Position numbers and translations under genes: made by a program | Assembly (NCBI GenBank): GCA_963847225.1 | Contig: CAWJYZ010000005.1 | Span: 745,648 to 809,647, forward strand | Length of the DNA stretch: 64,000 nucleotides | From: an uncultured bacterium | Lineage (GTDB): Bacteria; Chloroflexota; Dormibacteria; Aeolococcales; Aeolococcaceae | Direction of reading: 5' to 3' | The notes under the pieces: model-generated | Seen by the model: only the letters and a program-made list of their open reading frames with translations | Told to the model about the DNA's origin: nothing | The model's database searches: none | In this document: positions 9,256-61,924 of the stretch, piece by piece | How the letters are laid out: each line of letters starts with the position of its first letter | Position numbering within the stretch: the stretch's first letter is position 1

Positions 9256-9261
9256 AGGCTC

Positions 9262-9721: not shown

Positions 9722-9754
9722 CGGCTCCGTCCGGCGCGCCCCGCCGCGGCGGGC

Positions 9755-32921: not shown

Positions 32922-34337
32922 TTACCCCTCGGACTCCGTGTGGTTGTGAAGGCGCTGTCGGAGCTGGCGGATGTCGCTCTGGAGGCGGACGTCCTCCCGG
33001 AGGAGCTCGCTGATCTTCTCGATGGCGTGGAGCGCGGTGGTGTGGTCGCGCCCGCCGAAGGCATCCCCCACCACGGGCAGGGAGGACTCCGTCTCCTCGC
33101 GGATGAGGAACATGGCGACCTGGCGGGGAAAGACGATGTGCTTGTCGCGGCGCTTGCTCTTCATCTCCTCCACGCTGATCCCGTAGTGGCCCGCCACCGT
33201 GGCTTGGATGAAAGGAATCGTGAGCGGCTGCACGTCGGCCACGGGAATGATGTCGCGGAGAATGCGCTGCGAGGTTTCCAGAGTGATGGCGTGGCCGTTG
33301 ATGGAGGCGTGGGCGAGGACTCGGATCAGCGCCCCCTCCAGCTCGCGGATGTTCTTCTGGATCCGGTGAGCGATGAAGCTGACAACCTCGTCGGGGACGA
33401 GGCGGGAGTGGGGGCCGAGCTTGCTCTTGAGGATGGCCAGGCGGGTCTCGAACTCGGGTGGCTGGATGTCAGCCATGAGGCCCCCTTCGAAGCGGCTACG
33501 CAGCCGGTCCTCGAGGGTGGGAATTTCCTTGGGCGGCCGGTCGCTGCTCACCACGATCTGCTTCTGGATGTCGTGGAGTGCGTTGAAGGTGTGAAAGAAC
33601 TCCTCCTGGGTGCGGTCCTTCCCGGCCAGGAACTGAATATCGTCGATGAGCAGCACGTCGACACTGCGGTAGCGATGCCGGAACTCTGTGGTCTTGTTCT
33701 CGAGGATGGACTCCACGACCTCGTTGGTGAACTTCTCAGAGGTCACGTAGGCGACCTTGGGGGAGCGGCGGTGTCCCTCTCGCACGGCGTGCCCGATGGC
33801 GTGCATGAGGTGGGTCTTGCCCAGGCCCACGCCGCCGTACAGGAAGAGCGGGTTGTAGGCCTTCCCGGGAGCCTCCGCCACCGCTCGGCAGGCGGCGTGG
33901 GCGAAGCGCGAGGAGGTGCCGACGACGAAGCTCTGGAAGGTGAAATTTGGATTGAGCCGCGTCTCCCCGGCGGGGGACAGGTCGGTCTCGGGGGCGAGGT
34001 CGGAGTCCGGCAGTGGAGCGGGCTCGTCGCGAGCGGGCACCGCGGTGGGGTCGACGGTGATCTCCACGGTGCAGTCGCGGCCGATGAGGCTGGAGATGAT
34101 CTCCTGGATGACGGAGACGAAGCGCTCGGAGACCCAGTCTCGCGCCAGCCGCGTCGGCACCCCGATGAGGAAGCGCTCGCCGTCGCTCTCCACGAGGGTG
34201 GCGGTGGCCAGCCAGGTCTCGTAGCTGGGACGGGCGAGCTGGAAACGCAGCTCCTCCTGGGCCGCGGCCCAGACCTGCTGTCCTGGCGGGCGTTCGCTGA
34301 CGCCGAGGGCGGCGCCATCGTCAGCTCCGAGCGTCAC
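32922..34337 (-). CDS. dnaA: Chromosomal replication initiator DnaA
   Basis: AAA+ Walker A GGVGLGKTHLMHAIGH, DnaA box-binding C-terminus (VGDAFGGRDHTTALHAIEKI), 471 aa. Confidence 0.92.
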   Translation of the reverse strand: MTLGADDGAALGVSERPPGQQVWAAAQEELRFQLARPSYETWLATATLVESDGERFLIGVPTRLARDWVSERFVSVIQEIISSLIGRDCTVEITVDPTAVPARDEPAPLPDSDLAPETDLSPAGETRLNPNFTFQSFVVGTSSRFAHAACRAVAEAPGKAYNPLFLYGGVGLGKTHLMHAIGHAVREGHRRSPKVAYVTSEKFTNEVVESILENKTTEFRHRYRSVDVLLIDDIQFLAGKDRTQEEFFHTFNALHDIQKQIVVSSDRPPKEIPTLEDRLRSRFEGGLMADIQPPEFETRLAILKSKLGPHSRLVPDEVVSFIAHRIQKNIRELEGALIRVLAHASINGHAITLETSQRILRDIIPVADVQPLTIPFIQATVAGHYGISVEEMKSKRRDKHIVFPRQVAMFLIREETESSLPVVGDAFGGRDHTTALHAIEKISELLREDVRLQSDIRQLRQRLHNHTESEG

Positions 34338-36792: not shown

Positions 36793-37614
36793 TTGGCAGA
36801 AGGTGAGACGGCGGTGGTGGCGCAGGGCGCCGAGAGCGTGGAGAGCGCGGGGGCGACAGTGGAGGCGGCCATCGCCGCCGGCCTCGCCGAGCTCGGGGTG
36901 GGCGGCGACGAGGTGAGTGTCGAGGTGCTCGCCCGGCCCGCCGCGGCCCTCCCCGGGGAGCACGTCTCGGGGGTGAGCGAGGCCAGGGTGCGCCTCACCC
37001 GGCTGGACGAGCACACCCTGCGGGGCAGGGCGGTCCTCGTCGACCTCCTGGAGCGCATGGGGATCGCGGCGCGGGTGACCGTGCGCCGTCCCGCTCCCGG
37101 ACCGGCCGATGCCCCGGTCCCCTCCGTCCTGGACATCGCCGGTGATGACCTCGGCGTGCTCATCGGATGGCGTGGGGAGACGCTCCGCGCCCTGCAGACC
37201 GTCGTCAACCTCATGATGGGCGATGACGAGAGCGCCACCGGGCGCCGCCTCATCCTCGACGTGGAGCGCTATCGCCACCGCCGCGAGGAGCACGTCCGGG
37301 AGCTGGCGCTGCGGCTCGCCAACCGGGTGAAGCGGACCGGGCAGCGCTACACCCTCGATCCCATGCACGCCTACGAGCGGCGGGCCATCCATCTCGCCCT
37401 CGCCGAGGATGAGGGGGTGAGCACCGAGAGCATCGGCCGGGAGCCGGCGCGCCGGGTGGTGATCAATCCCACCGGTCCGGCGCAGCCCGACCTGCCCGAG
37501 CTGCCCGACCGCTTCGGGCGCCCGGCGCGCCGCCCCTTCGGGGGAGGAGGTGGACGGGATCGCGGCCGGGGCGGTGCTGGAGGCGGCGGCCGGCCGCGCT
37601 GGTCACGGTTCTGA
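36793..37614 (+). CDS. jag: Jag/KhpB R3H-domain RNA-binding protein
   Basis: Jag_N, KH-like (GDDLGVLIGWRGETLRALQ) and R3H (RRAIHLALAEDEGVSTESIG) motifs. Confidence 0.8.
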   Translation: MAEGETAVVAQGAESVESAGATVEAAIAAGLAELGVGGDEVSVEVLARPAAALPGEHVSGVSEARVRLTRLDEHTLRGRAVLVDLLERMGIAARVTVRRPAPGPADAPVPSVLDIAGDDLGVLIGWRGETLRALQTVVNLMMGDDESATGRRLILDVERYRHRREEHVRELALRLANRVKRTGQRYTLDPMHAYERRAIHLALAEDEGVSTESIGREPARRVVINPTGPAQPDLPELPDRFGRPARRPFGGGGGRDRGRGGAGGGGRPRWSRF

Positions 37615-42012: not shown

Positions 42013-42939
42013 TCAGAGGGGACGGCCGCCGAGGCGCCGATAGAGGGTATCCAGATCCTCGTCGTCGCTGAAGGTGATGACGACCCTTCCTCCCCGAGGG
42101 GTGCGCTCGATGGTGACGGGCAGGCCGATGGCCGCCTCCAGGCCGTGGCGAAGCATCTCGTCTTCGGCGCTGCGCCGCGCCGATGTCGCCGCCACGTGGC
42201 GCCGCGGCGCCTTGCCGCCAACGGCCAGCTCGCGCTGCACCAGGGCCTCGGTGGCGCGGACGGTGAGACCGTCCGTGACCACCTGCCGTGCCACGCGGCT
42301 CATTCCCTCCTCCTCGCCCAGGCTGAGGAGCACGCGGGCGTGTCCCGGCGTCAGGGCGCGGCTGGCGACCGCATCCTGCAGGTTGGCGGGGAGCTGGAGG
42401 AGGCGGATGGCGTTGGTCACGGTTGGCCGGGTGCGACCGAGGCGGAGGGCAATCGCCTCGTGGGAAAGCCCGAAGGCGTCGGAGAGGCGGGCGTAGGCCG
42501 CCGCCTCCTCCATGGGGTTGAGGTCTTCGCGCTGCAGGTTCTCGGTGAGGGCGAGCTCGAGAGCGTGGCGACCTGATTCGGACGCGGGGCGGAGGATGGC
42601 GGGGACGGCGGCCACGCCGGCTTGGCGCGCCGCCCGGAGGCGCCGCTCGCCGGCGACGAGGCGGTAGCCGTCGACATCCGGCTCGACGACGATGGGATGG
42701 ATCAGACCGTGGTGGCGGATCGAATCCGCGAGGGTGGCGAGGGAGGCGGGGTCGAAGTCACGCCGCGGTTGCTCCGGGTTGGGGTGGACCCGGTGGGGGT
42801 CCACCTCGACGATGGCTGGGCCGCTTCCCAGGTCGCGGGTGGGGTCACTGCTGGCGAGAAGGGCGTCCAATCCCCGGCCCAGACCGCGGCGGCGAGGCGG
42901 ACCGCCCATCCCGGGGGTGAAGGTGCCGTCGGGGGTCAT
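42013..42939 (-). CDS. parB: Chromosome partitioning protein ParB
   Basis: GLGRGLDALL N-terminus and the ParB box HPIVVEPDVDGYRLVAGERRLRAARQAG. The start at MTPDG abuts the parA stop. Confidence 0.85.
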   Translation of the reverse strand: MTPDGTFTPGMGGPPRRRGLGRGLDALLASSDPTRDLGSGPAIVEVDPHRVHPNPEQPRRDFDPASLATLADSIRHHGLIHPIVVEPDVDGYRLVAGERRLRAARQAGVAAVPAILRPASESGRHALELALTENLQREDLNPMEEAAAYARLSDAFGLSHEAIALRLGRTRPTVTNAIRLLQLPANLQDAVASRALTPGHARVLLSLGEEEGMSRVARQVVTDGLTVRATEALVQRELAVGGKAPRRHVAATSARRSAEDEMLRHGLEAAIGLPVTIERTPRGGRVVITFSDDEDLDTLYRRLGGRPL

Positions 42940-43748
42940 GCCGGCCAGGGGACGGCGGCGCCGCTCGCGCCCGCCTGGAGACGGGCGTCGAGGTTGGCGG
43001 CCAGCTCGCGATAGGCGTGAGCGCCGCGGGAGGCCGGAGCGTAGAGGGTGATGGGAAGGCCGTAGCTCGGGGCCTCGCTGAGGCGGACGTTGCGGGGGAT
43101 GACGGGGTCGAGGACGCGCTCGCCGAAGCGGTTGCGCACCTCCTCGACGACCTGGTTGGCCAGGGTGAGCCGGGCGTCGTACAGGGTGAGCACGATGCCG
43201 GCTACCTCCAGGTGGGGATTGAGGTCGCGGCGGAGCAGGTTGATGGTGTGGGTGAGGAGGCCGAGTCCCTCGAGTGCGTAGAACTCGCACTGGATGGGGA
43301 CGAGCAGGGCGTCGGCGGCGACCACGGCGTTGACCGTCAGAAGCCCGAGGCTGGGGGGGCAGTCGAGGAAGACGTAGTCGACCGGCTCGCCGTCGGCGAG
43401 AGCCTCGAGGGCGTAGGCGAGACGCTTCTCGCGCCGGGCCACCCCGACCAACTCGATCTCGGCCCCGGCCAGGGCGATGTCGGCGGGGACCAGCTCGAGG
43501 CCGGTGACGCGGGTGGCCATGCGGGCCTCGGCGAGGGGACGGCCGAGGACCAGGACGTCATACGTGCTGGTGGTGATGTCGCGCCGGGCCACCCCCAGGC
43601 CTGAGGTGGCGTTGGCCTGCGGATCGCAGTCGATGAGCAGCACCCTGCGTCCCCTCTCGGCAAGGGCTGTGGCCACGTTGACGACGGTCGTCGTCTTGCC
43701 GACACCCCCCTTCTGGTTGGCGACGGCGAGGATGTTCGGGGGGGCCAT
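42936..43748 (-). CDS. parA: Chromosome partitioning ATPase ParA (Soj)
   Basis: ILAVANQKGGVGKTTT deviant Walker A. The ATG giving MAPPN was verified. Confidence 0.9.
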   Translation of the reverse strand: MAPPNILAVANQKGGVGKTTTVVNVATALAERGRRVLLIDCDPQANATSGLGVARRDITTSTYDVLVLGRPLAEARMATRVTGLELVPADIALAGAEIELVGVARREKRLAYALEALADGEPVDYVFLDCPPSLGLLTVNAVVAADALLVPIQCEFYALEGLGLLTHTINLLRRDLNPHLEVAGIVLTLYDARLTLANQVVEEVRNRFGERVLDPVIPRNVRLSEAPSYGLPITLYAPASRGAHAYRELAANLDARLQAGASGAAVPWPA

Positions 43749-43954
43749 CGCCGCGATTATGGGACGCCCGCCGGGAGGGCGCAGGCCGGCACGGCGGAAG
43801 CGAGGCGGGGGGAGGGCACAGGGCCGGGACGGCGGGCGGGAACCCGGGGCCAGCTCAGGCCCGGGCCTGGTGGCGCAGTTCGCCCCGGCGCTCGGCGATT
43901 CCTGCCCGTTCTCCGGGCAACGCCGGGGTGAAACAACCTCTATTCTCCGGGCTG

Positions 43955-44395
43955 ATGGAACCAATGCCGCCAACCCTGGGCCGGACAACGCCGCCCGATG
44001 ACCTCGACATCGGCTTCCTCCTCGGCCTTCTCGTCGGTGAGGGGCACTTCGGAGGCGACGGCCGGCAGCCGCAGGTCACCCTGCGGATGCACGTCCGTCA
44101 CGAGAAGACCTTTCGCCGCCTCGCCGCCGCCTTCCCCGGCGGCAAGCTCTACGGCCCCTATCACCACGGGGGACGGCACTACTACCAATGGATGGTGAGG
44201 GGTGACTATCTGCGTCGCGTCCTGGCCCCGCTCATCGCCAGCCACCGCGGCTGGCTCGACGATCATGCCGCTCCGCGCTTCGACAGCATGTGCGAGCGCT
44301 ATCGCATCATCGAGGTGGTGGGAGCGCGGAGCGCCGAGGTGGGTGGTCAGAACGGCGACCGCTGGGTTGCCGATGGAGCTGTGGTGCGGGAATGA
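43955..44395 (+). CDS. LAGLIDADG-type homing-endonuclease-like protein (single-motif)
   Basis: IGFLLGLLVGEGHFGG aligns to LAGLIDGDGsF. The downstream pattern QVTLRMHVRHEKTFRRLAAAF...YYQWMVRG...LAPLI resembles the I-CreI-type core; ~147 aa. Confidence 0.5.
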   Translation: MEPMPPTLGRTTPPDDLDIGFLLGLLVGEGHFGGDGRQPQVTLRMHVRHEKTFRRLAAAFPGGKLYGPYHHGGRHYYQWMVRGDYLRRVLAPLIASHRGWLDDHAAPRFDSMCERYRIIEVVGARSAEVGGQNGDRWVADGAVVRE

Positions 44396-50126: not shown

Positions 50127-53100
50127 TCAGGCGGGGACCGAGGCGGACGCCTCGACCGGGTTCAGGCCCTCGGCTCCCTCCGCTCTCGCCGGCGGGAGGA
50201 CGCGATCCGTCCGGTCGACGTACGGCTGGGCCCCGAGCTCCGTGAAGGTCCGGCGGGCCTGGGCGATGAGCTCCTCGGCTTGGCGAAGCCGCCCCGCGCG
50301 GGCCAGCACTTCGCCAAGCTCCATGCGTGCCACGGCGGACCAGAAAGGTCGGCTCAGGCTGTCAAAGGCCTCGGCGGCCTGGCGCAGGTGGGTCTCGGCC
50401 TCCTCGGCGTCGCCACGCCTTTCGGCAAGACGGCCGGTCCAGCGCAGCAGGTGGGCGTCGATGGACGGCTGCGCGCCGGCCCGAATGTTGCGGCGCATGA
50501 GGTCGATCAACTCCTGGACCTTGCTCTCCTGGTCGAGGGTGAAGGCCGCTTCAACGGCCTCGACGAGCGCCTGCCGCAGGGAGACGAGGGACGACTGTTC
50601 GATGCTGGCGCGCAGGGTGTCCTCGGCGAGAGCCAGGGCCTGGCCCGCCTCCCCCTCCGCGTTGAGCACCGCCGCTTGAGCCGCATCGAAGTACCAGCGG
50701 TCCTGCCCGGTGGTCGCCTTCTGCAGGGTGGAGCCGGAGGAGTTGAGGAGGCCATGAGCGGCGAGCACGTCGCCCTGTCGCAGATGCAGCCACAGCGCGG
50801 TGAGCGAGGTGGCGGCGACGAAGGTGGACTGACTGAGCTCCGCCACGTCGTCTTCCGAGTACCCCGCGAAGATGGATCTGCAGGCGTCCCACCGGCCGAG
50901 CTCGAAGAGTGGAGCCATGCAGTTCAGCTTGTTGCCCCACATCACGGGCCGATCGCCGATGCGCTCGGCAAGCTCGGCACCCTGCTCGTAGACGGCGAGC
51001 GCGTCCTCCATACGGTCGGCCTCCTCCAGGCGTGTGGCCAGGTACGAGCAGGCGCGTGCCGCTTGTTCAGGCAGGTCGTGGTCGAGGGCGACGTTGAGGG
51101 CACCCTGAAAGAGGAGCTCGGCCTCCATGAGGCGGCCCTGGGTCTGCAGGATGCCGCCCTTCGTGTCGAGGCTCCGCGAGAGGAGGTCCCAGGAACCCAG
51201 CTCCTCGGCGATCTCCAGTGCTCGCTCGATGTGCTCCAGTGCGACGGTGAACTCACCACGGAAAAACGCCATGCTGGCAACGCTGCTCTCGGCGTTGCCC
51301 AGGAAGCCCCGGTGCTCCTCCCGGGTGGCGCCCTGCAGGCCCTGGAGTGCCTTCTCGCCGCGGGGGACGGCGGCGTCGCTGTCCCCCTCCCGGAACTCCA
51401 GGCGGGCGAGCTCGGTGAGGGCCGCGGCTCCCTCCATCGGCAGACCAGCCGTGGCGAAGGATTCGGCCGCCTGGCGCAGATGGGACCTCGCCTCGACACC
51501 ACGACCCTTGCGCGCCGCTGCCCTGCCGGCTTTGGCGTGCAATTCTGCGCGGAGGGCGGCGTCGTCAATCAGCTCGAGAGCCTGTTCGTAGTAGCGCTGC
51601 GCGGAGGCCGGAGCGCTCAGGGAGTTGGCGTGTTCGCCCGCTCTGATCAGCCCTCGGGTGGCCCGGTCGCGGATCTCCGGCGCGTCCTCCGCGTCAGGGT
51701 CCGCTCGGTAGGCGGCGACCAGATGCGAAGCCACCACCTCGGTGATGTCCTCTCCCTCCTGCCAGGCGCTCTGCAGGTGAGCGGCCGCTGCGAGGTGGCG
51801 CAACTTGCACTCGCGTCTCGCCAGGGTGGCGTAGGCCACGCTCCGCACCAGGTCCTGAACGAACACGTACTGGCCGCGCTCCGGCGAGCGAGGGTCGGAC
51901 TGGATGGCGAGCAGGTCCTTGCTGACCAAGCCGGTCAAGAGCCGCGCCAGCTCGCTCTCCTCGCTCCCGTTCACCGCGGAGAGAGCCGCCGCGGTGAAAG
52001 ACTTGCCAAGCACGGACGCGTCCTGGAGCACCTGCCGCTCGGGAAGGCTCAGATGGTCGAGCCGGGCCGCCACCAGGGCATGCAGGCTCTCCGGCACCTC
52101 CAGAGCCTGCAGCGACCCCTCGAGACGGTACTTCCCCTGGGACTCCACGAGAAGGCCACGGTCGAGAAGCATGCGCACCGTCTCCACGGCGTAGAGGGGG
52201 ATGCCGGCTGCCCGCTCCCGGATGCGGGCGGCGACGTCGGCGGGAAGCCCCGGCACGAGGCCGTCGAGCAGCTCGGTCATGGCCTCGGAGGAGAGCGGCT
52301 CGAGGTAGAGGGAGGCCAGTCCGCGCTTTCCCGTGCCCCACCCCGGGCGCCGCTCGCTCAGCTCAGGGCGGGCCAGGGTGATGACGAGGATGGGGGTGCT
52401 TCGCGACCAGTCAAGGAGGTACTCGATGAAGTCGAGGAGCCCGCCGTCGGCCCACTGGAGATCCTCGAAGACCATGACGGTCAGGCTGTGCGCGGCGACG
52501 CGCTCGAAGAAGACGCGCCAAGCCGCGTACAGGTCTCGTGGGTCCCCGAGGCTCACCTCCTCGAGCCCGACGAGGTGAGCCAGCCGAGGCTCCACCCAGC
52601 GCCGCTCCTCCTCCTCGGCGACAAAGTCGAGGATGGTTGCGTGGAGCTTGTCGCGCGCCGATTCGGTCGCCTCGTTCTCAGCGATCCCCGCACGCATCCG
52701 CACCATCTCCGCCAGGGCGGAGTACGCAACTCCCTCTCCATAGGCGAGGCAGCGGCCGCGATGCCAGTAGATGGTCTCGGTCAGGCCGTCGACGTATTTG
52801 AAGAACTCCCAGGCGAGGCGGGACTTGCCCACCCCGGCCATGCCCACGATGGAGAGGAGCCGGGCCCGGGCCTCCTCGCCGGTGCCGTGCAGGAACTCCT
52901 TGAGAAGGCGGAGCTCCCGGTCGCGGCCCACGAAGGGGGGCTCCAGGCCGGAGGGGCGGAGCGCCCCGCCGCGGGCCGCGACCACCCGGGCCGCTTGCCA
53001 CAGCCGGATGGGCTCCGGCTTGCCCTTCAGCTGATGCTTGCCGGTGTCCTCGTAGACGATGGCGGCCTCGGTCGCCTGGCGGGTGGCGTCGCCGACGTAG

Positions 53101-53768
53101 ACCATCCCCGGCTCCGCAGCCGCCTGTACCCGCGATGCCGTGTTGACCAGATCTCCGGCGACCATGCCCTCGCCGCTCGCGCCGACGTTCACCGCCACCT
53201 CGCCGGTCATGACCCCGGCACGGGCCGTCAGCCCGGGGATCCCGAGCTCCTGCCCGAAGACCGCCACGGAGTCGACGAGCTCGAGGGCGGCGCGGACGGC
53301 TCGCTCCGCTCCGTCCTCGAGGGCCCTCGGGGCTCCCCATACCGCCATCACGGCGTCGCCGATGAACTTCTCGACGGTTCCGCCGTAGCGTCCGATGACG
53401 GTGCGAGCCCTCTCGAAGTACTGGCTGAGCAGGTCGCGCACCTCCTCGGCATCGCGCCGGTCGGAGAGTGCGGTGAAGCCGACGAGATCGGCGAACAGCA
53501 CCGTGACGTGGCGCCGCTCTGGAGCAGGCTGCTCGGAGCGCACCCCGCCCGGCGTGGGCCCGGCGCGAACCCCAGGGGGGCTCATCGCCGCGGGCGCAAC
53601 GATCGCCGCAGGGGCCTCCCCGAGCGCCACCCCGCATTCACCGCAGAACCGATCCTCCGCGCCGTTGGCAGCGCCACAGGACGGGCAGAGGCGCTCCAGC
53701 GGAGCGCCGCAGCTGCCGCAGAACCGCCGGCCCGGTCGGTTCTCCGCGCCGCAGGCCTGGCAGTTCAT
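50127..53768 (-). CDS. Zinc-ribbon / class III adenylate cyclase / STAND (AAA_16) ATPase / TPR multidomain protein
   Basis: MNCQACGAENRPGRRFCGSCGAPL..CPSCGAANG double zinc ribbon. The cyclase has metal Asp motifs (VLFADLVGFT, EKFIGDAVMAV), a substrate Lys and Asp (AGDLVNTASR), and the N...R transition-state pair. Walker A IVGMAGVGKSRLAWE. The C-terminal ~600 aa are TPR-like helical repeats. The ATG was verified. Confidence 0.8.
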   Translation of the reverse strand: MNCQACGAENRPGRRFCGSCGAPLERLCPSCGAANGAEDRFCGECGVALGEAPAAIVAPAAMSPPGVRAGPTPGGVRSEQPAPERRHVTVLFADLVGFTALSDRRDAEEVRDLLSQYFERARTVIGRYGGTVEKFIGDAVMAVWGAPRALEDGAERAVRAALELVDSVAVFGQELGIPGLTARAGVMTGEVAVNVGASGEGMVAGDLVNTASRVQAAAEPGMVYVGDATRQATEAAIVYEDTGKHQLKGKPEPIRLWQAARVVAARGGALRPSGLEPPFVGRDRELRLLKEFLHGTGEEARARLLSIVGMAGVGKSRLAWEFFKYVDGLTETIYWHRGRCLAYGEGVAYSALAEMVRMRAGIAENEATESARDKLHATILDFVAEEEERRWVEPRLAHLVGLEEVSLGDPRDLYAAWRVFFERVAAHSLTVMVFEDLQWADGGLLDFIEYLLDWSRSTPILVITLARPELSERRPGWGTGKRGLASLYLEPLSSEAMTELLDGLVPGLPADVAARIRERAAGIPLYAVETVRMLLDRGLLVESQGKYRLEGSLQALEVPESLHALVAARLDHLSLPERQVLQDASVLGKSFTAAALSAVNGSEESELARLLTGLVSKDLLAIQSDPRSPERGQYVFVQDLVRSVAYATLARRECKLRHLAAAAHLQSAWQEGEDITEVVASHLVAAYRADPDAEDAPEIRDRATRGLIRAGEHANSLSAPASAQRYYEQALELIDDAALRAELHAKAGRAAARKGRGVEARSHLRQAAESFATAGLPMEGAAALTELARLEFREGDSDAAVPRGEKALQGLQGATREEHRGFLGNAESSVASMAFFRGEFTVALEHIERALEIAEELGSWDLLSRSLDTKGGILQTQGRLMEAELLFQGALNVALDHDLPEQAARACSYLATRLEEADRMEDALAVYEQGAELAERIGDRPVMWGNKLNCMAPLFELGRWDACRSIFAGYSEDDVAELSQSTFVAATSLTALWLHLRQGDVLAAHGLLNSSGSTLQKATTGQDRWYFDAAQAAVLNAEGEAGQALALAEDTLRASIEQSSLVSLRQALVEAVEAAFTLDQESKVQELIDLMRRNIRAGAQPSIDAHLLRWTGRLAERRGDAEEAETHLRQAAEAFDSLSRPFWSAVARMELGEVLARAGRLRQAEELIAQARRTFTELGAQPYVDRTDRVLPPARAEGAEGLNPVEASASVPA

Positions 53769-53823: not shown

Positions 53824-56800
53824 TCAGGACTGCGCGCTGACCGCAGCCCTGCCTCGGGCTCGAACCGTCGTCCGCAGGATCTGCGGGCGATCGATGGCAC
53901 CTGCTCCCCGGAGCCGCTCCATGGCGCGCAGGGCACGGGCCGCGGACACCGTGTTGCCCTTCTTCTCGAAGAGGGGGATGGCCTCGGCCAGCGCAGCCTC
54001 GGCCTCTCCAGGCTTCCCGGCTGCCTCCAGCACCTCCGCGAGCCCGACGAGGGCGTCACCCTGGACGTCGGGTTGATCGGTGGTGCGAATCACCCGGACG
54101 GCCTCATGGGCCATCTCCTCGGCCTCTCCGGGTCGACCCTGCACGGCCAGTAGCTTGGCCTGGATGCAGCGCCACTGGTACTGGGCGCCAACGTCGTGTG
54201 GCGCCGCCAGATCGTGGCAAACGCCAGCAAACGTCGAGGCCTCCTCGTCGCGGCCCTGCGCGTGCAGGACCTCGGCGAGCAGCCCGGCGACAGTGGGCGT
54301 GTACCCCTTGTCGCCCATCGCAGTCAGCGCCTCGTAGTCGGCGCGAAGCTCGGACTCAGCGCGATCCAGGTCGCCGGCCAGCATCTCCGCCGGTCCCGAG
54401 TGCAGCGAGGTGATCGCGGCACTCAGGCTGAAGCCGAGCTCAGTCAGCATCTTTCGGCTGCGCTGGTAGAGATCCCGGGCCAGCTCGGCGCTTCCGCACA
54501 TGGCTTGCAGGTGACTCATCGCCGAGAAGGTCATCGCCTCAGTTCTGCGATCCCCGGCCCCTCGACCCAGGATCTCTTGGCAGCGGTCGAGGGCGTCCGA
54601 GACCGGGGTGGCGCTGTAGACGACGCAGGAAGCGAGCGCGGAGAGCATGCGGATCTCGAACACGCGGCTGGAACCGAGCTCGGCTTCGTGGATTGCCTGG
54701 GTTACGGCTTCCTCGGCGCGACTGAACTGTCCTTCATAAAAGTGCACGTAAGCCATGAGCCGCCAGGCGCGAGCGAGACCCTCGTGCGAGCCGGTCCGCT
54801 CCAGCTCCCTGATGGCCTGCTCGCACTCCGCGGCGACGGCCGCCGCCGGCTCGTTCTCCGGCGCGGACAGGAACCGCCACATCCGCCGCACCACCGACGC
54901 GACGATGGCAAAGGCGGGCCTGTCTTGCGCCCGGGCGCGCTCCTCCGTGGTGATGAGGGCTTCTTCGGCCGCCTGAAACTGCCCCATCTCGCCCAGGGCC
55001 TCGCCGATATGCAGGAGCCACCGTGGCGCCTCTCTTCCATGGGGGTCGAGGGTCGCGGCGCGGTGCAGCAGGGTGGCCGTCGCCGGCACGTCACCGCTCG
55101 ATCGGGCCCGCTCGCCAGCCGCCGCCAAATGCGTCGCCCCGCGCCGGCCCACGGTCTTGCCCCGCTCGTCGACGGGACCGAGCTGCGCCAGCGTCAGGCA
55201 GGCCTGCTCCAGGTGATAGCCGCAGACCTCGTCCAGCTCTCCCGAATGCTCGGAGGGATTGGCCTCGAGCCAATCGGCGAACCGCTCGTGCAGGTCAACC
55301 CGAGTCCGCTTCAGGAGGCCCTGGTAGGCAGCGTCGCGGATCAGCGCGTGGTCGAAGCGGAACGCCCGCTGCCCCGGGGATCCGGCCTCCACGGGGGTCA
55401 CCAGCTCTCGTCTGACAAGGCCATCCAGGCTCGCCCCCGCCTGGGGACGGAGCTCGTCGGAGCAGAGAGCCTCCACCGCCGGCTGCAGGAACAGCTGACC
55501 GATGACCGCCCCGCGCTCCAGGACGCTGCGGTCCGTGGCGCCCAGCCGGTCGAGGCGGGCAGCCAGCAGGGCTGTGATGCTGGGAGGCACGGCCAGCGAC
55601 GAGAGATCGGCAGCCGCCACCCAGCCGGTCCCCTCGCGGCGGATGAGCCCGTCATCGATCATCATGGAGAGCATCTGCTCGACGAAGAGCGGATTCCCTG
55701 CCGCTGCCTCGATGATCCGGCGGCGAGGCGCCTCGGCGAGCGTGCCGTCGCCGAGAAGATTGCACACCACCTCCCCGCTCTCCACCTCGCTCAAGGGGCT
55801 GAGGATCAGCACCTGAGCGCCATCTCTGCTCTCGCCCCATCCCGGCTGCTGATCCAACAGCTCGGGGCGCGCAGAGCAGAGGAGCAGGAGCGCTGGTGCG
55901 TCCGAGCCGGGCTCAGCAAGGTATCGAAGGAGATCCAGGAAGGTGAGCTCTGCCCAGTGGATGTCCTCGATCCTCGCCACCACCGGGCCGGTGTGGCTGA
56001 GCGCTGCGATGAGCTGCCGGGTGGCCCAGAACGTCTCTCGAACCGGGAAGGTGGCCTCCCCCAGCCCGAGCACCGCCGCCAGCCTCTCGGTGACGTCCGG
56101 TGCCTCGCCCCCGACGAGCTGATCGAGCTTTGTCCGAGCTGCCTCCGCGTCGTCCGCATCGGTGATCCCGGCGGCATCCCGGACCATCTCGGCGAGCGGC
56201 CCAAAGCTGCCCTCGCCGTAGGAGAGGCACCTCCCGTGCAGCACTCGCGCCTTGTCCGCAGCCCGTTCGAGGAACTCCTGGATCAGCCGGGATTTGCCGG
56301 TGCCGGCGGGGGCGAGGACGGTCACCATCTGGGGGGAGCCGAGGCTCGACACCCGGGCCAGGGCCTCGACCATCGCGTTCAGCTCCGCGCTGCGTCCGAC
56401 CAGTGGGGTGTCGGCGCGGCGGGCCACCCCTTCGCGCCGGCTCACCCCCCGGAGGCGATAGGCGGGGATGCGCTCGGACTTTCCCTTCAGCTCCAGCGGC
56501 TCCACCGGCTCAACGTCGACGGCGTCGCGGACCAGGCGGTAGGTCGGCTCTCCGATCAGGGTTTCCAGGGGCGGGGCCGCCTGCTCCAGCCGGGCGGCGA
56601 CGTTGACGGCGTCGCCGGTCACCAGCCGCTGTCCTGGTGCTGGCTGGCCCGCGATGACCTCGCCGGTGTTCACGCCCGTGCGGTTCTGGAGAGCCACACC
56701 CCAGCGGGCCGCGAGATGGTCGTTGAGCTTCTTCAGCTCCTCCTGCATCTCGTACGCAGCACGGACCGCCCGCACGGCGTCGTCCTCGTGGACGCGGTTG

Positions 56801-57087
56801 AGCCCGAAGACGGCCATGATGGCGTCGCCGATGTACTTCTCAATGGTGCCGCCGTGACGCTCGAGGACGGTCTTCATCGCCTCGAAGTACGCATGCAGGA
56901 CCTCGCGGAGCGCCTCGCTGTCGAGACGCTCCCCCAGCTCGGTCGAGCCCTTGAGGTCGCTGAAAACGATGGTGACGGTCTTGCGGACCTCCTGCGGCGG
57001 CGGGGCGACAACGAGAGGGGTTCCGCAGAAACCACAGAGCCGGAACCGGTCAGGGTTCTCCTCGCCGCAACTGGGGCAGATTTGCAC
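53824..57087 (-). CDS. Zinc-ribbon / class III adenylate cyclase / STAND ATPase / TPR multidomain protein (paralog)
   Basis: ICPSCGEENPDRFRLCGFCG, then IVFSDLKGST, EKYIGDAIMAV, VTGDAVNVAARLE. Walker A LAPAGTGKSRLIQEF. TPR-like tail. GTG start. Confidence 0.8.
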   Translation of the reverse strand: MQICPSCGEENPDRFRLCGFCGTPLVVAPPPQEVRKTVTIVFSDLKGSTELGERLDSEALREVLHAYFEAMKTVLERHGGTIEKYIGDAIMAVFGLNRVHEDDAVRAVRAAYEMQEELKKLNDHLAARWGVALQNRTGVNTGEVIAGQPAPGQRLVTGDAVNVAARLEQAAPPLETLIGEPTYRLVRDAVDVEPVEPLELKGKSERIPAYRLRGVSRREGVARRADTPLVGRSAELNAMVEALARVSSLGSPQMVTVLAPAGTGKSRLIQEFLERAADKARVLHGRCLSYGEGSFGPLAEMVRDAAGITDADDAEAARTKLDQLVGGEAPDVTERLAAVLGLGEATFPVRETFWATRQLIAALSHTGPVVARIEDIHWAELTFLDLLRYLAEPGSDAPALLLLCSARPELLDQQPGWGESRDGAQVLILSPLSEVESGEVVCNLLGDGTLAEAPRRRIIEAAAGNPLFVEQMLSMMIDDGLIRREGTGWVAAADLSSLAVPPSITALLAARLDRLGATDRSVLERGAVIGQLFLQPAVEALCSDELRPQAGASLDGLVRRELVTPVEAGSPGQRAFRFDHALIRDAAYQGLLKRTRVDLHERFADWLEANPSEHSGELDEVCGYHLEQACLTLAQLGPVDERGKTVGRRGATHLAAAGERARSSGDVPATATLLHRAATLDPHGREAPRWLLHIGEALGEMGQFQAAEEALITTEERARAQDRPAFAIVASVVRRMWRFLSAPENEPAAAVAAECEQAIRELERTGSHEGLARAWRLMAYVHFYEGQFSRAEEAVTQAIHEAELGSSRVFEIRMLSALASCVVYSATPVSDALDRCQEILGRGAGDRRTEAMTFSAMSHLQAMCGSAELARDLYQRSRKMLTELGFSLSAAITSLHSGPAEMLAGDLDRAESELRADYEALTAMGDKGYTPTVAGLLAEVLHAQGRDEEASTFAGVCHDLAAPHDVGAQYQWRCIQAKLLAVQGRPGEAEEMAHEAVRVIRTTDQPDVQGDALVGLAEVLEAAGKPGEAEAALAEAIPLFEKKGNTVSAARALRAMERLRGAGAIDRPQILRTTVRARGRAAVSAQS

Positions 57088-57201: not shown

Positions 57202-58617
57202 TTACGTGGACCCCCAGAAGTCGCCGGGCGCACCGAAGAACTCGATGAGGACGTCGCCGCCCTTCTTGGTCCGCGAGACGGTGCACGGAGCCGGGACGGT
57301 CGACGAGCAGTCGGGAAGGAGGCCGACGTACAGGGGCGTCAACGTACCCGGGATTGTGGTTGTATCCGTATCCTGGGAGGCCATTCCACCAGCCCTGACC
57401 GGGAAGTCTTCGGTGCTGGCGTAACAGATCTGGTAGAAGGGCGCTCCGTTGTTCGCCGAGGCGTCCACCTCGGACTTGGGGACGTCGATGATGATGTCGT
57501 AGGTAGCGGCTGAGTCCGTTCCGTCGTACTTGCTCGAAGCGGTCCAGAGGTCGACTCCGATCGACCCCGTCACCGTGCCGTAGCCAGTGCAGCTATATGC
57601 GAAGCCGCCCAGCCCAAGGCTCAAGATGTCGCCCCCGGTGGCGTTGCTGATGTCGACGCTGACCCCCGTCGTCTTGTTGCCGGCGGCAATGTCCCCCGCA
57701 CACGAGCTGTTGCAGTCCGCGGAGGTTGTGGTGACTAGGAAGGTTGTCGAGTTGGTTGTGTGGAATCCAGCGGCACTGGCCGTGAGCGCGTAGTAGCCCG
57801 TCTGGTTGACATAAATCGGGGAGAAGGAGGCCACGCCCAGCGACGTGCCACCCGTGCCGTCGCCTGTAGTAGCTGAGGTATCGCCGATGAGCTTGCTGTT
57901 GGTGGGCCCATAGATCTCGCTCAGAGCGATCGTCACGCCGCCAAGGAGGTTGCCCTCGCCATCCTTGGCCTCGACCTCCACCGGCGCACCGGTGGGATCG
58001 AACGGTTGACTCGTGATGTCGTTGGAGTAGGTGCCCCCGCCTGTTGGGAAGGAGGTCTTCGCCGGCTCGGCGATGGAGACGAAAGCGAGCGTGCATTCGC
58101 CGCTGACTTGGACGCTGAGACCGCTCGCGGAATCGATGACGAAGTCGTTGCCCGGGTTGCCGTTGAAGTTGTTGGCTTGCTTGGCCTGCAACATCCAATC
58201 GCTGGCCGCTCCGGCGCAGGAGACTGTGCCAGTGAACGATGCAGTGATAGCGCCGCCCGGCGGGACGTCGAGGGATCGGAGCTCGAGGACGGTCCCGGAC
58301 GCGATATTAGCTGTTGCCGATGCGGCTGGGTAGCCGTCGGTCACCGACGCCGAGCTCAGCACCCAGTTGCTTGGCGCGGTGAGGTCGGCGGAGCCTAGCG
58401 ACTGCTGGGTGTCCTCGTTTGTCAGTGTGAAAGTGAAGTTGACGGTGGCCCCCGCACCGACCGGGCTCGGGTTGTACGAGAGACTCCCGAGCGCGCACTT
58501 GGCGCTGCTGCAACCACCGCTCGCGCCAGCCAGGTTCGCCGTGGCCGGCAACCCCATGGCCGCCGCCACAAGCAGCATCACCCCCCACCGAATTTTGCCA
58601 ACCCCAAATCGGCCCAT
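57202..58617 (-). CDS. Secreted Ser/Thr/Gly-rich protein (signal peptide), lower GC than surroundings
   Basis: AGGAGG SD 6 nt upstream of the verified ATG. Signal peptide MGRFGVGKIRWGVMLLVAAAMGLPATANLAGA. The mature protein is S/T/G/N-rich with several Cys pairs. GC3 is visibly lower than in neighbouring genes. Confidence 0.7.
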   Translation of the reverse strand: MGRFGVGKIRWGVMLLVAAAMGLPATANLAGASGGCSSAKCALGSLSYNPSPVGAGATVNFTFTLTNEDTQQSLGSADLTAPSNWVLSSASVTDGYPAASATANIASGTVLELRSLDVPPGGAITASFTGTVSCAGAASDWMLQAKQANNFNGNPGNDFVIDSASGLSVQVSGECTLAFVSIAEPAKTSFPTGGGTYSNDITSQPFDPTGAPVEVEAKDGEGNLLGGVTIALSEIYGPTNSKLIGDTSATTGDGTGGTSLGVASFSPIYVNQTGYYALTASAAGFHTTNSTTFLVTTTSADCNSSCAGDIAAGNKTTGVSVDISNATGGDILSLGLGGFAYSCTGYGTVTGSIGVDLWTASSKYDGTDSAATYDIIIDVPKSEVDASANNGAPFYQICYASTEDFPVRAGGMASQDTDTTTIPGTLTPLYVGLLPDCSSTVPAPCTVSRTKKGGDVLIEFFGAPGDFWGST

Positions 58618-58847
58618 GGTTACCCTCCTCCTTCCGGACAAGCTTCTTGATATCAGCCAGCCGGGCTTCCCTTCCATGGGCACAGCGTGGACAGGCAGGC
58701 ACACAATAGCGTACCCGGGGGGAGGCGTCCACCTGGCGTATTCGAACGCCTTGGCGGGAAGCCCTTGGAGGATGCGACCGGGGCGGTGTACCCTTTGCCG
58801 GCCGCCTGCCTCGGACAGCGGCCAGAGCCGATGGGGAGAGGAGCGCC

Positions 58848-60632
58848 GTGACGGTCCAGGCGGTCGAACCACAATCGTCGCCCCCGCACGGGCTCGGCAA
58901 CCGGCTCCTCCGCTACCGCAGGCGGCGGGCGGAGAGGTCGGCGCCGCGGGCCAGCTACGGAGCCCTCTTCCGCAACCGCGACTACCGCCTGCTGTTCAGC
59001 GGTCTGACCATCTCCATGACCGGGTCGTGGGCCTACAACGTGGCCCTCGTCGTCTACGTCTTCGACGTCACCCACTCCGCCGCCTGGGTGGCCGCGGCGT
59101 CGGTGAGCCGCTTCCTCACCTCCCTGGTGGCGAGCCCGTTCGGCGGCCTCCTCGCCGACCGCGTGGAGAGGATCCGGCTGATGGTGTCCCTGGACGTCGT
59201 GGCTCTTGTCGTCCAGGGTCTGCTCGCCGTGGTGGCGGCGCTGCACGGCTCGGTGGTGCTCGGCCTCGTGCTGGTGGCCCTGACCTCGGTGGTGGGCCGT
59301 GCCTACGACCCCGCGGCGCGGGCGGCAACCCCCGCCGTGGTCGGCGAGGAGCTGCTCGCCGCTGCCAACAGCATGCAGTCGGCGGTCGAAAACCTCACCC
59401 TCCTTCTCGGGCCCGCCCTCGGCGCCGTGCTCATCCTCCTCGGCCCACCCGCCGTGGTGTTCGCGGTGAACGCGGCGACCTTCGGCGTCTCGGCGCTCCT
59501 CGTGAGCCGCATGCTCACCCGCAACCGCCCCGGGGACATCACCAAGGGAGGCGCCGTCGGGCCGCTGCGCCAGATGGCCGAGGGCATCCAGGCCTTCGCC
59601 AGCTCCGGAACCGTGGTCCTCCTGGCCAGCTTCAGCATCCTGGCCAGCTTCATCTACGGCACCGACACGGTGCTGCTGGTCGTTGTCAGCAAGGACCTCC
59701 TGGGCACCGGCAGCACCGGTTACGGCTACCTGCTCGGAGCCCTCGGAGCCGGCGGCATCGTCATGGCCCTGTTCATGAACCGGATCGCGGCGATGCGTCG
59801 CCTGGGGGCGATCATCGTCGCCGGCATGGCCCTGTACTGCCTGCCCACGGCCCTGCTGCCCCTCGTGCACTCTCCGGTCGTGGCCTCCCTCCTGGAGGTG
59901 GGCCGCGGCGCCGGGACCATCATCGTCGACGTCCTCGCCATCACCGCGATGCAGCGCTTTGTGCCCTCCGACGTGGTGGCCCGCGTCTTCGGCGTCTTCT
60001 TCGCCCTCGTCCTCGCCGCCATCTCCCTCGGCGCCCTCCTCATGCCCATCCTCCTCGGCGCTTTCGGCCTCGACACGACCCTGCTGGTGATGGGCCTGGC
60101 CATCCCCGTGCTCTCGGTGCTGGCCTATCCATGGATCGCGCGCCTCGACGCCCGGGCTCGTGCGGTGCTGGTGAGCATCGAGCCGCGCCTCAGCATCCTG
60201 CGCGGCTTCGACATCTTCGCCGGCATCCCCCGCGGCGCTCTCGAGGCCGTGGCACGCGGTGCTGTCGAGGAGAAGGTGGAGCCCGGCATCGTGATGATCC
60301 CCGAGGGCGCCGAGGCCGACGACTTCTTTGTCCTCACTGCCGGGGAGGCGGCCGTCACTGCCCGTGCTGCTGGGGAGGAGCGCCGCCTCGCCACCCTCAC
60401 GGCGCCGGACTACTTCGGGGAGATCGGGCTCCTGGAGCGCCGGCCGCGCACCGCCACGGTGACCGCGACCTCTCCCTGCACCATCCTGCGAATCAAAGGC
60501 GGCGACTTCCTGGCGGCGGTCACCGCGGTGCCGCTCACCCCCGGCTCTCTGGGGCGCGCCCAGGCGCGGCTCGAGCGCACCGAGCCGGCGGCCAAGCTCA
60601 CCCTGGCCGGCACCGCGGCGCCAGCCGGCTGA
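58848..60632 (+). CDS. MFS transporter fused to C-terminal cyclic-nucleotide-binding (CAP-type) domain
   Basis: ~12 TM MFS core (YRLLFSGLTISMTGSWAYNVAL...). The C-terminus has FAGIPRGALEAVA...GIVMIPEGAEADDFFVLTAGEA...DYFGEIGLLERRPRTATVTAT, a cNMP-binding signature. GTG start with a gagagga SD. Confidence 0.75.
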   Translation: MTVQAVEPQSSPPHGLGNRLLRYRRRRAERSAPRASYGALFRNRDYRLLFSGLTISMTGSWAYNVALVVYVFDVTHSAAWVAAASVSRFLTSLVASPFGGLLADRVERIRLMVSLDVVALVVQGLLAVVAALHGSVVLGLVLVALTSVVGRAYDPAARAATPAVVGEELLAAANSMQSAVENLTLLLGPALGAVLILLGPPAVVFAVNAATFGVSALLVSRMLTRNRPGDITKGGAVGPLRQMAEGIQAFASSGTVVLLASFSILASFIYGTDTVLLVVVSKDLLGTGSTGYGYLLGALGAGGIVMALFMNRIAAMRRLGAIIVAGMALYCLPTALLPLVHSPVVASLLEVGRGAGTIIVDVLAITAMQRFVPSDVVARVFGVFFALVLAAISLGALLMPILLGAFGLDTTLLVMGLAIPVLSVLAYPWIARLDARARAVLVSIEPRLSILRGFDIFAGIPRGALEAVARGAVEEKVEPGIVMIPEGAEADDFFVLTAGEAAVTARAAGEERRLATLTAPDYFGEIGLLERRPRTATVTATSPCTILRIKGGDFLAAVTAVPLTPGSLGRAQARLERTEPAAKLTLAGTAAPAG

Positions 60633-60660: not shown

Positions 60661-61010
60661 TCAGCCGGTGCCGGAGGCCGGGACCGGCTCTCCGCCCTCT
60701 CCCGGCGGAGCTGCCTCCGAGGCCTCTCCCCCCTCCGCCGAGGGTGCCCGGGGGAGCGCCTCCATCAGCAGGCGGACGGGTCGGCGGAGATCCGGGCGCA
60801 CCTGGAAGAAGGTCGCGTCGTCATCACCCGTGGCCACCAGCAGCTGGGCGGTGCGCAGCCGCTCCAGCTGGTGCTCCACCTCGAACTCCGGCCGGTGCAT
60901 CGTCTCCGCCAGCTCGCGCGCGGTGCGCGCCCGCTGCAGCAGCTCTCGGACCAGGGCCAGCCGCCCCGGGTCGCCCAGGGCACGGAAGAGATCGGCCGCC
61001 CCCGGCAGGT
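60661..61010 (-). CDS. Small ArsR/SmtB-family transcriptional regulator (start unresolved)
   Basis: LFRALGDPGRLALVRELLQRARTARELAETMHRPEFEVEHQLERLRTAQLLV is an ArsR-type wHTH. There is no in-frame ATG/GTG upstream of the HTH; a candidate ATG lies in the adjacent frame, suggesting another indel. Confidence 0.5.
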
Positions 61011-61044
61011 GCTCCTCGCCGGCCGCCGTCCGCAGCCGGCCGCG

Positions 61045-61924
61045 AGTTCATATGGAGCATCGGACGCAGAGACAGCCCCTGTCCGGTTGCGTAGCTGGTG
61101 CGCAGCAGCGCCTCGCCGACCGTGGCTCCCCCGCTGCGCCGTGCCACCACCAAGTAGAAGGCGGCCACCACCAGCGCCGCCGCCACCGCGTCCACCCAGC
61201 CCCAGTTGAACCCGAGACCCGCCAGCCGGCCGATGGCGAGGAGGCCGGTGATGATGCTGCCGACGATGCCCATGTCGATGGCCGCGGCGAAGGCGATTCG
61301 TGCCCAGCGGGGGACGCGCACCAGCCCGGCACCGTGCCCCGCCGGCGCCTTGCGCGCGGCCAGGTAGACGCCGACCCCCACCACCACGAGCAGGCCGCCC
61401 TGCACCGCCAGCCTCTCGATGCTGGTGAGGAAGTGCTCGACGGGAACCCCGACCGCCGCTCCGAGGGCCACGAAGGCCGCGACCCAGAGGGCGGTGGCGG
61501 GCACGAGGCCCTCGAGGTAGGTGGCCCGTGGCAGGCGCAGGGCCCCCGCCACCAGGGTGGTGTAGATGCGAAGCCCGGGGATGAGCCGGCTGATGGCCAC
61601 CCCGGTCCAGCCGGAGGTGCGGACCCGGGCGGTGACCTTGGTCAGGGTCTCCTCGCGATGGAGCCGCTGAGCCACGGCGTGCAGACCCCGATCGCCCACC
61701 GCCCGCGCCCAGGTGTATCCGACCATCGCCCCCGCCACGCAGGCGAAGACGGCCAGCGGACCGAAGACGTAGGGGTCGAGGCCTCCAGCGGCGATGAGCA
61801 GCCCGGCCGCAAGCAGGACGAGCTCCCCGGGGGTGGGCAGCGGCACGCCGGCCTCCTCGGCGAAGAGGAGGCTGCAGAGAAGAGCGATGGCGACCGCCCC
61901 GTGCAGCCCCTCGAGAAAGTTCAT
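61045..61924 (-). CDS. DedA/TVP38 family membrane protein (3' end unresolved)
   Basis: VPLPTPGELVLLAAG...GWTGVAISRLIPGLRIYTTLVAG DedA core. The ORF runs on without a stop into the ArsR gene region as low-complexity R/G/A sequence. The true end is probably near 61050-61170. Confidence 0.55.

Follow-up and report, generated by a model that had tools for sequence, protein, structure and literature searches.

A cyclic-nucleotide-binding MFS transporter and its neighbouring STAND cyclases: a candidate cAMP signalling module in a Dormibacterota-like lineage

Introduction

Proteins that join a major facilitator superfamily (MFS) permease to a cyclic-nucleotide-binding (CNB) domain have been recorded in domain-fusion surveys (Willson et al. 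2019, cited in PMC10710835), and PMC10710835 describes them as common but experimentally uncharacterised. We analysed one such fusion gene, which lies within a 64,000-nucleotide stretch of DNA from an uncultured bacterium (the window; assembly GCA_963847225.1, contig CAWJYZ010000005.1, positions 745,648 to 809,647) near two genes for class III nucleotide cyclases that are themselves fused to STAND nucleoside triphosphatases (NTPases). Its product has the architecture of the surveyed fusions, with a cytoplasmic CNB domain after the permease. The locus is best read as a signalling unit that a Dormibacterota-like lineage inherits vertically and not as a mobile defence system, and we consider it rather probable that it encodes a physiological cyclic AMP (cAMP) module, in which sensor cyclases control an efflux-type MFS transporter by way of the transporter's own CNB domain. 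To our knowledge, direct gating by cAMP has yet to be demonstrated for any bacterial secondary transporter; the locus is a well-defined candidate for the first such case, built from familiar parts.

Several described proteins share some of these parts. Rv3239c and Rv3728 of Mycobacterium tuberculosis are fusions of an MFS permease, a cyclic nucleotide monophosphate (cNMP)-binding domain and an esterase, and the window protein differs from them in having no esterase domain. The DHA3/MFS_3 exporters EntS, Tet(V), Mef(A) and Tap share its 12 transmembrane (TM) helices, its motif A and its antiporter-type GP motif, but lack a CNB domain. In the bacterial K+ channels SthK and MloK1, a C-terminal CNB domain gates the membrane transport domain, to which a helix connects it; these are tetrameric channels, whereas the membrane part of the window protein has the monomeric-type fold of an MFS secondary transporter. 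Among eukaryotic proteins, SLC9C1 is a Na+/H+ exchanger that bears a CNB domain. Sequence and fold searches of solved structures returned none with MFS and CNB domains in one chain.

On the cyclase side, Rv0386, Rv1358 and Rv2488c are mycobacterial cyclase-STAND proteins. These proteins and the kinase/cyclase fusion proteins of TIGR03903 share with the window cyclases a class III cyclase domain followed by an AAA_16-type STAND NTPase and tetratricopeptide repeats (TPR), and the TIGR03903 match runs from the cyclase through the TPR region (E 1e-60), although its 205 bits lie well under the equivalog cut-off of 706. Unlike these proteins, the window cyclases begin with zinc ribbons and have neither a LuxR-type helix-turn-helix (HTH) domain nor a kinase domain. 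Pycsar and Pucsar defence systems follow a common logic with the locus, a cyclase gene beside a gene for a cNMP-binding membrane protein, but differ from it in the class of effector, in where they lie in the genome and in how they are conserved, and probably in the clade of the cyclase. The fusion architecture is already known, and the conserved pairing of the fusion with cyclase-STAND genes appears to be undescribed, as we found no description of it in the literature searched, the coverage of which was limited.

Results

The transporter keeps a cyclase neighbour through repeated rearrangement

The locus consists of three genes of primary interest:

58848..60632, plus strand: MFS-CNB fusion gene, 594 aa (Pfam MFS_1, MFS_3 and cNMP_binding)
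53824..57087, minus strand: cyclase-STAND 'B', 1087 aa (zinc ribbon, class III cyclase, AAA_16 STAND NTPase, TPR)
50127..53768, minus strand: cyclase-STAND 'A', 1213 aa (double zinc ribbon, class III cyclase, AAA_16 STAND NTPase, TPR)

An earlier note on this DNA, made from the sequence alone, had placed two divergent STAND cyclases about 2.2 kb from the transporter. The strand and the domains are as it described, but the distance is shorter, with 1.76 kb between the transporter start at 58848 and the cyclase B start at 57087.

Loci were compared by tblastn and by clustering of open reading frames, taking one genome per species, which yielded 45 loci, 27 of them close orthologues (64-79% identity); three further orthologues, looked up without selection, were added to the 27. 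Fusion orthologues at 64-79% identity are present in all 27 related species genomes recovered. The co-occurrence with cyclase-STAND genes that the earlier note had proposed to survey is found in 24-25 of the 27 species-level loci, where such a gene lies inside the flanks, and in one of the three added loci (one is window-like, two have no cyclase), giving about 25 of 30 overall. The median gap between the transporter and its nearest cyclase is 279 bp. Any other neighbour family occurs in at most seven loci, which indicates that general synteny is not conserved.

The pairing takes at least five gene orders among the orthologous loci. In the window's clade, the two genes are divergent with an intervening gene, and the cyclase is of the B type. 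Elsewhere they are divergent with a phosphodiesterase-like gene in between, or arranged as cyclase-cyclase-transporter-cyclase on one strand with gaps of 84-86 bp, or the cyclase stands immediately upstream of the transporter (24-78 bp); convergent pairs occur as well, as do cyclases 2.7-2.9 kb downstream. Cyclase-STAND sequence covers 30-55% of the flanks up to 6 kb away from the transporter and just 0.5% at a distance of 8-10 kb, and the remaining ~50 kb of the window contain no such gene. A pairing conserved in about 25 of 30 loci and in several orders gives real comparative support to the idea of a second-messenger module.

Two cyclase lineages take part in this pairing. Cyclases A and B are only 34% identical to each other and represent two paralogue lineages, each of which holds the transporter-side position in different clades. 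B orthologues (58-68% identity) stand beside the transporter in loci L001-4, L009, L017, L025 and L135, while A-type copies (46-73%) flank it in L005, L007, L010-L016, L018, L019, L021, L023, L024, L026 and L033. Among the homologues listed, two long contigs have exactly two close A-type copies each, which agrees with the two copies that flank the transporter there. Cyclase A of the window is an additional copy in this genome of the kind that flanks the transporter in other clades.

Pairings also occur outside the Dormibacterota-like lineage: one in Frankiales, one in Jatrophihabitantaceae, one in a further locus of Actinomycetota and one in a metagenome (L032, L036, L038 and L081). Among the actinobacterial homologues, 4 of 14 loci have a cyclase or a phosphodiesterase-like neighbour (L032, L034, L036, L038). 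Coincidental adjacency, which we considered because MFS-CNB proteins are common in Actinomycetota, is overturned by the locus comparison for the Dormibacterota-like lineage and stands for most of the actinobacterial homologues.

The membrane half is an intact transporter of probable efflux type

The fusion protein divides into the following parts:

58962..60125, plus strand: MFS domain, residues 39-426 (Pfam, motifs, AlphaFold2 model)
60126..60203, plus strand: long cytoplasmic linker helix from TM12 to the CNB domain, residues 427-452 (DSSP of the AlphaFold2 model)
60228..60581, plus strand: CNB domain, residues 461-578 (PF00027, AlphaFold2 model)
60414-60467, plus strand: phosphate-binding cassette, residues 523-540, peptide FGEIGLLERRPRTATVTA

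The reading frame opens with a GTG codon just 3' of a GGAG-rich stretch, and its 594-aa product matches the database protein P0001, likewise of 594 aa, at 100% identity. The earlier note's description of a 12-TM MFS permease carrying a CAP-type CNB domain is borne out by both Pfam and the structural model. Its suggested Pfam check places the domains above their gathering cut-offs: MFS_1 covers residues 49-395 (E 2.8e-25, 89.4 bits against a cut-off of 33.4), MFS_3 covers residues 39-425 (E 2.7e-24, 85.9 bits against 27) and cNMP_binding, PF00027, covers residues 475-557 (E 1.2e-16, 60.9 bits against 27.5). These E values are far outside chance. The AlphaFold2 model, built from 145 homologues (pLDDT 91.3, pTM 0.87), contains 12 long TM helices between residues 44 and 425, arranged as the two six-helix bundles of an MFS protein.

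The MFS-CNB family is large, with 800 clusters at 50% identity scoring E<=1e-30. We examined motif conservation in 114 distant representatives of 50%-identity clusters. Motif A (GxxxDRxGRR type, between TM2 and TM3) is present as G100..A103-D-R105 and conserved across the representatives, with G100, A103 and R105 each at least 90% conserved in the family; the motif-C-like G188-P189 and the second-half motif D361-V..T366..Q369-R370 are conserved among them too. Between orthologues, the MFS domain is the best-conserved part of the protein (74-84% identity, versus 57-77% for the CNB domain). The retained motifs and the high conservation together point to a working efflux-type secondary transporter, and not to a degenerate membrane anchor.

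Foldseek returned the drug/H+ antiporters MdfA, NorA, VMAT and SotB as the nearest solved folds, with target-normalised TM-scores of 0.74-0.82 for MdfA, NorA and VMAT2. In NCBIfam the protein comes nearest to TIGR00900 (DHA3), EntS, Tet(V), Mef(A) and Tap, and it scores far under the cut-off of each (TIGR00900, 153.9 bits against 319.6; EntS, 82.9 bits against 324), which places the transporter at superfamily level only. The families and folds that it resembles most (EntS, Tet(V), Mef, MdfA, NorA) are exporters coupled to H+, and by this resemblance the best reading is an efflux-type, MFS_3/DHA3-like protein. Its substrate is most likely an exported metabolite, and could possibly be cAMP itself.

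The binding half carries a canonical phosphate-binding cassette

In the AlphaFold2 model the CNB domain spans residues 462-578, with its beta-roll at residues 473-550, and it superimposes on the CNB-B domain of protein kinase A (PKA) RI-alpha with a target-normalised TM-score of 0.76 (Foldseek). The nearest solved domains are those of cAMP-bound PKA regulatory subunits; SthK is also among the structure and sequence matches, and the Pycsar effector PycTIR (8jsj) matches only at E 2.5e-5. The cassette FGEIGLLERRPRTATV is canonical, of the Gly-Glu plus Arg-[Thr/Ser]-Ala type, and the peptide that the earlier note had quoted corresponds to residues 523-540. Across 234 full-length homologues, 114 of them the cluster representatives used above, G524 is kept in 233, E525 in 232, R534 in all 234, Thr or Ser at position 535 in 227 and A536 in 233. 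The Arg and Glu whose loss that note had named as counting against its reading are therefore in place. The putative ligand is most probably cAMP.

The neighbouring cyclases retain catalytic and STAND motifs

Pfam identifies a zinc ribbon, Guanylate_cyc, AAA_16 and TPR in both cyclase proteins. Cyclase A begins at the ATG at 53768 (1213 aa, as in the database protein P0271) and not at the longest-frame start at 54059; consequently, the two genes do not overlap, and A lies 55 bp after the B stop codon on the same strand. The residues of class III catalysis are kept in both, with metal-binding Asp (D44 and D88 in B, D94 and D138 in A), substrate-binding Lys (K84 in B, K134 in A) and transition-state Asn and Arg (N162 and R166 in B, N209 and R213 in A), and an alignment of 12 family members shows little or no variation at the catalytic Asp, Asn and Arg. 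The Walker A motif reads APAGTGKS in B and GMAGVGKS in A, and its pattern GxxGxGKS is invariant. The AAA_16 matches reach 74 and 65 bits (cut-off 32.6), and TPR_12 and TPR_MalT matches follow it, as in a STAND sensor. The top solved match of the cyclase domains is the Pseudomonas aeruginosa adenylyl cyclase CyaB (5e-26); the Pycsar cyclase PycC (7r65) follows at 3e-5. The predicted substrate is likely ATP.

Conservation is distributed differently in the two lineages. The TPR region of A-type paralogues is 21-44% identical, versus 72-80% in their cyclase and NTPase domains, while B-type orthologues are evenly conserved, TPR region included (62-65%). The cyclase-STAND family as a whole numbers at least 8000 proteins at E<=1e-30, usually annotated as 'class 3 adenylate cyclase/TPR'.

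A proposed mechanism and the evidence that weighs on it

The mechanism that we propose treats the neighbouring cyclase-STAND proteins as a dedicated signal source. Their TPR and STAND parts would sense an intracellular cue, and NTP-dependent oligomerisation would then bring the class III cyclase domains together in active dimers. The cAMP so made would bind the phosphate-binding cassette of the transporter, which is intact, and binding may be passed through the linker helix after TM12 to shift the MFS domain between inactive and active states. What we observe is the architecture, the intact and conserved motifs of catalysis, binding and transport, and an adjacency that is conserved and repeatedly rearranged; the ligand, the substrate, the direction of this regulation, the direction of transport and the functional dependence on the neighbouring cyclases are what we infer. 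The alternative that the earlier note had offered, a cAMP-regulated permease, is in essence the best explanation of the locus, with the addition that the neighbouring sensor cyclases probably feed the regulation.

Several observations weigh against this mechanism. At least four orthologous loci (L006, L022, L133, L134) have no cyclase in the flank, though they still hold a phosphodiesterase-like gene of the metallo-beta-lactamase (MBL) fold, a Crp-like regulator or both. The compared genomes are kin, and their loci are hence not independent observations. The cassette has the 'RTA' form, which is found in cGMP-binding domains too, and in an alignment with CyaB the cyclases have Met (A) or Leu (B), not Asp or Thr, at the second base-specifying position; cAMP is accordingly the probable nucleotide and not a certain one. 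Within the window itself, a further gene separates the cyclases from the transporter:

57202..58617, minus strand: secreted-protein gene, 471 aa, with signal peptide and weak DUF7933 match, co-directional with cyclases B and A
58618..58847: divergent intergenic region, 230 bp, between the secreted-protein/cyclase unit and the transporter

Because this gene fills the gap, the cyclases and the transporter are neighbours without being strictly adjacent, as the earlier note had them. Homologues of the secreted protein occur only in the window's clade (L001-4, L009, L017, L135), and the gene probably lies outside the core of the module. The intergenic region presumably holds promoters for both directions, and it contains neither a Crp-like palindrome nor an inverted repeat.

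The association is also weak when viewed from the cyclases. We examined 80 metagenomic loci retrieved with a cyclase-STAND profile and six Dormibacterota cyclase homologues on long contigs. An MFS-CNB gene lies in the available flank of only 2-4 of the 80, many of which show nothing but tandem cyclase arrays, and two of the six adjoin the transporter, the other four lying elsewhere. The family of the cyclases is consequently large and spread over many loci, and they may feed a common cAMP pool, which counts against a private circuit as well. The relationship is asymmetric: the transporter is one output, nearly always with a cyclase beside it, and the cyclases are a multi-locus sensor family.

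This asymmetry would suit an ordinary cAMP-regulated permease that reads the global cAMP pool, in which case its adjacency to cyclases reflects loose clustering of cAMP genes or inherited synteny. cAMP is diffusible, most cyclase-STAND genes lie away from the transporter, the four orthologous loci named above have no cyclase nearby, and 10 of the 14 actinobacterial loci have no adjoining gene of cAMP metabolism. Inherited synteny is hard to reconcile with an adjacency that has outlasted complete turnover of the other neighbours and at least five rearrangements; the operon-like gaps of 24-86 bp in several loci, the recruitment of two distinct cyclase lineages to the same position and the independent pairings in Frankiales, Jatrophihabitantaceae, another Actinomycetota locus and a metagenome likewise argue for a functional link. 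We therefore regard a permease that merely reads the global pool as unlikely, and continue with the transporter regulated by its neighbouring cyclases.

Two further arrangements of cyclase-STAND genes were seen in these searches. Tandem arrays of three to four same-strand copies are frequent, with or without a transporter (L048, L051, L046, L127). In L131, one of the four homologues that lie elsewhere, a cyclase-STAND gene without a transporter lies near an MBL gene with a weak Anti-Pycsar_Apyc1 Pfam match, a gene for an HD-domain protein and a TPR_MalT plus GerE (LuxR-type) regulator (coordinates 8897-9742 and 3449-5164).

Related loci add further cAMP-signalling genes

Relatives of the locus carry accessory genes of four kinds, for a stand-alone CNB protein (about 120-140 aa), a Crp-like CNB-HTH regulator, a GAF protein and an MBL-fold protein. 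None of the four is present in the window, which accordingly represents a minimal form of two cyclases and a transporter. The Crp-like regulator, the GAF protein and the phosphodiesterase-like gene are marks of physiological cAMP signalling.

The MBL-fold protein (L012 8863-9720) matches Lactamase_B_2 (PF12706, E 8e-20) and carries the motif THLHWDH; [T/S]HxHxDH is the defining signature of the Rv1339/YfhI/CpdA atypical class-II cAMP phosphodiesterases (PMC9293780). It matches the phosphodiesterase model NF041851 over its full length at 45.6 bits, against an equivalog cut-off of 400, and is by sequence a distant relative only. Within its clade the protein is 86-91% conserved, and it is 47-48% identical to actinobacterial copies that adjoin MFS-CNB homologues.

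Three placements of the accessory genes recur. MBL-fold genes stand next to MFS-CNB genes in one Dormibacterota clade (L005-8, L010, L012, L013, L014, L133, L134) and in three actinobacterial loci (L032, L034, L036), an association that spans phyla and that we rate as notable as the cyclase association. In the closest relatives of the window, a stand-alone CNB gene of ~120 aa lies directly 3' of the transporter (L002 11829-12185, L003 11849-12205), and it has the same position in L004, L009, L017 and L135 (9877-10236); in the window this gene is absent, and just 28 bp separate the transporter stop from a DedA-like gene. In a third clade, a divergent pair of genes for a GAF protein and a Crp-like CNB-HTH regulator lies ~2-8 kb 3' of the transporter (L011, L015, L018, L021, L022, L023, L026, L033), often with an extra small CNB protein and an S8 peptidase, and resembles a cAMP-signalling gene island.

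A transporter that repeatedly stands beside cAMP-making and putative cAMP-degrading genes, and whose family affiliation is of the efflux type, might itself be a cAMP export valve, with the CNB domain starting efflux at high cytoplasmic cAMP. With the cyclases, and with the phosphodiesterase-like gene of other clades, it would then form a homeostasis unit of synthesis, degradation and export; this proposal differs from the one we favour in its substrate only. Mycobacteria secrete cAMP made by the cyclase-STAND protein Rv0386 through an exporter that has yet to be identified. DHA-type pumps mostly carry hydrophobic or cationic compounds or siderophores, and we know of no MFS exporter of cAMP. 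Such a valve is quite improbable in our judgement, and we retain the sensor-gated transporter, most likely of another metabolite.

Taken as a sensor-gated transporter with its cyclases, the locus and its relatives would form a compact putative set of writer (the STAND cyclases), reader and effector (the CNB-gated MFS protein) and, in sister clades, eraser (the Rv1339-like phosphodiesterase). The phylum that it comes from is an uncultured group of soil bacteria that has been studied little, and the lineage, with its many cyclase-STAND paralogues, appears to invest heavily in cAMP signalling. The module could inform work on the mycobacterial MFS-cNMP proteins and on how STAND-type cyclases are wired to their outputs.

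Chromosomal setting and the question of defence

The window has a G+C content of 70-74%, and the nearest homologues of the fusion protein (67-79% identity) come from metagenome-assembled genomes labelled Candidatus Dormibacteraeota or Dormibacterota, some of them 'uncultured Chloroflexia'. It also contains the gene cluster of a replication origin:

31554-32711, minus strand: dnaN
32922-34337, minus strand: dnaA
35677-36759, plus strand: yidC
36793-37614, plus strand: jag/KhpB
42936-43988, minus strand: ParA-like ATPase

This cluster places the cyclase/transporter locus ~25 kb from oriC. The locus has as neighbours genes for an Fe-S assembly protein, a member of the isocitrate/isopropylmalate-dehydrogenase family, a VTT/DedA-family membrane protein, a class-V aminotransferase (SufS-like) and a Rieske protein. 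Its setting is core chromosome, neither a defence island nor a mobile element.

The setting bears on whether the locus is a Pycsar-like abortive-infection system. According to that proposal, the STAND/TPR cyclases sense phage and release a burst of cNMP that opens the MFS-CNB protein; collapse of the membrane potential or leakage of metabolites then halts the phage. A STAND NTPase and TPR sensor fused to an output domain is a typical build of immune sensors, and according to a preprint's prediction, cNMP cyclases with a fused STAND NTPase make up an 'immune clade 1' (10.64898/2026.08.12.744502). At the level of single domains, PADLOC matches PycC (E 1e-18 to 4e-21) and the CNB portion of PycTIR (E 7e-10). 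Cyclase copies vary from one to three per locus, and the A-type paralogues diverge most in the TPR region, both of which count in favour of a defence role.

Most of the remaining evidence argues otherwise. PADLOC finds no system-level match at the window locus. The effector classes of Pycsar and Pucsar are CNBD-TIR proteins or a 3-TM protein of the pJV1-spdB3 family (10.64898/2026.08.12.744502), and the window protein is neither, being a full 12-TM transporter with its transport motifs kept. Among solved structures, the cyclase domains are far closer to CyaB than to PycC, and the CNB domain is closer to the PKA regulatory subunit than to PycTIR. The gene is conserved over many genomes and is not patchy, the B-type cyclases are evenly conserved through their TPR region, and the core-chromosomal surroundings near oriC hold no defence or mobile genes. 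In related loci the pair is accompanied by genes for a Crp-like regulator and a GAF protein and by a phosphodiesterase-like gene. A scan of viral contigs with the single fusion protein found no relatives, and a plasmid search gave one match, at 32% identity, on a non-mobilisable 816-kb replicon; nothing was found on mobilisable plasmids.

We therefore hold a phage-triggered, Pycsar-like system to be very unlikely, and the analogy to Pycsar/CBASS effectors that the earlier note had drawn is not supported as one of defence; its broader idea of a second-messenger module is the part that survives, on the strength of the co-occurrence. We give equally little credence to a variant in which an immune module is fixed in the chromosome throughout the lineage, with diversifying TPR/STAND sensors that would detect invaders, a purine cNMP as the signal and the MFS protein as membrane effector. 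As a new immune system, then, the locus is unlikely, and it is useful as a negative control where STAND-fused cyclases as a whole are claimed to serve immunity. If the immune reading were true, it would add a new Pycsar/Pucsar-like effector class and provide the first function for the predicted 'immune' STAND-fused cyclases.

Other features of the window

The VTT/DedA-family gene 3' of the transporter (60661-61924, minus strand) is split into two frames, 60824-61924 and 60661-61047. The split corresponds to a single-base indel relative to an independent assembly of the same organism, in which the gene is a single one of 420 aa (L126), and it reflects either an error in sequencing or a genuine frameshift. 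Towards its C-terminus the product resembles an ArsR-type HTH domain. Elsewhere in the window and unrelated to the locus, 10330-13434 (minus strand) encodes a 1034-aa superfamily-1 helicase-like protein (AAA_11/AAA_12), beside which lies a 451-aa open reading frame at 13279-14634 (plus strand) with no Pfam match.

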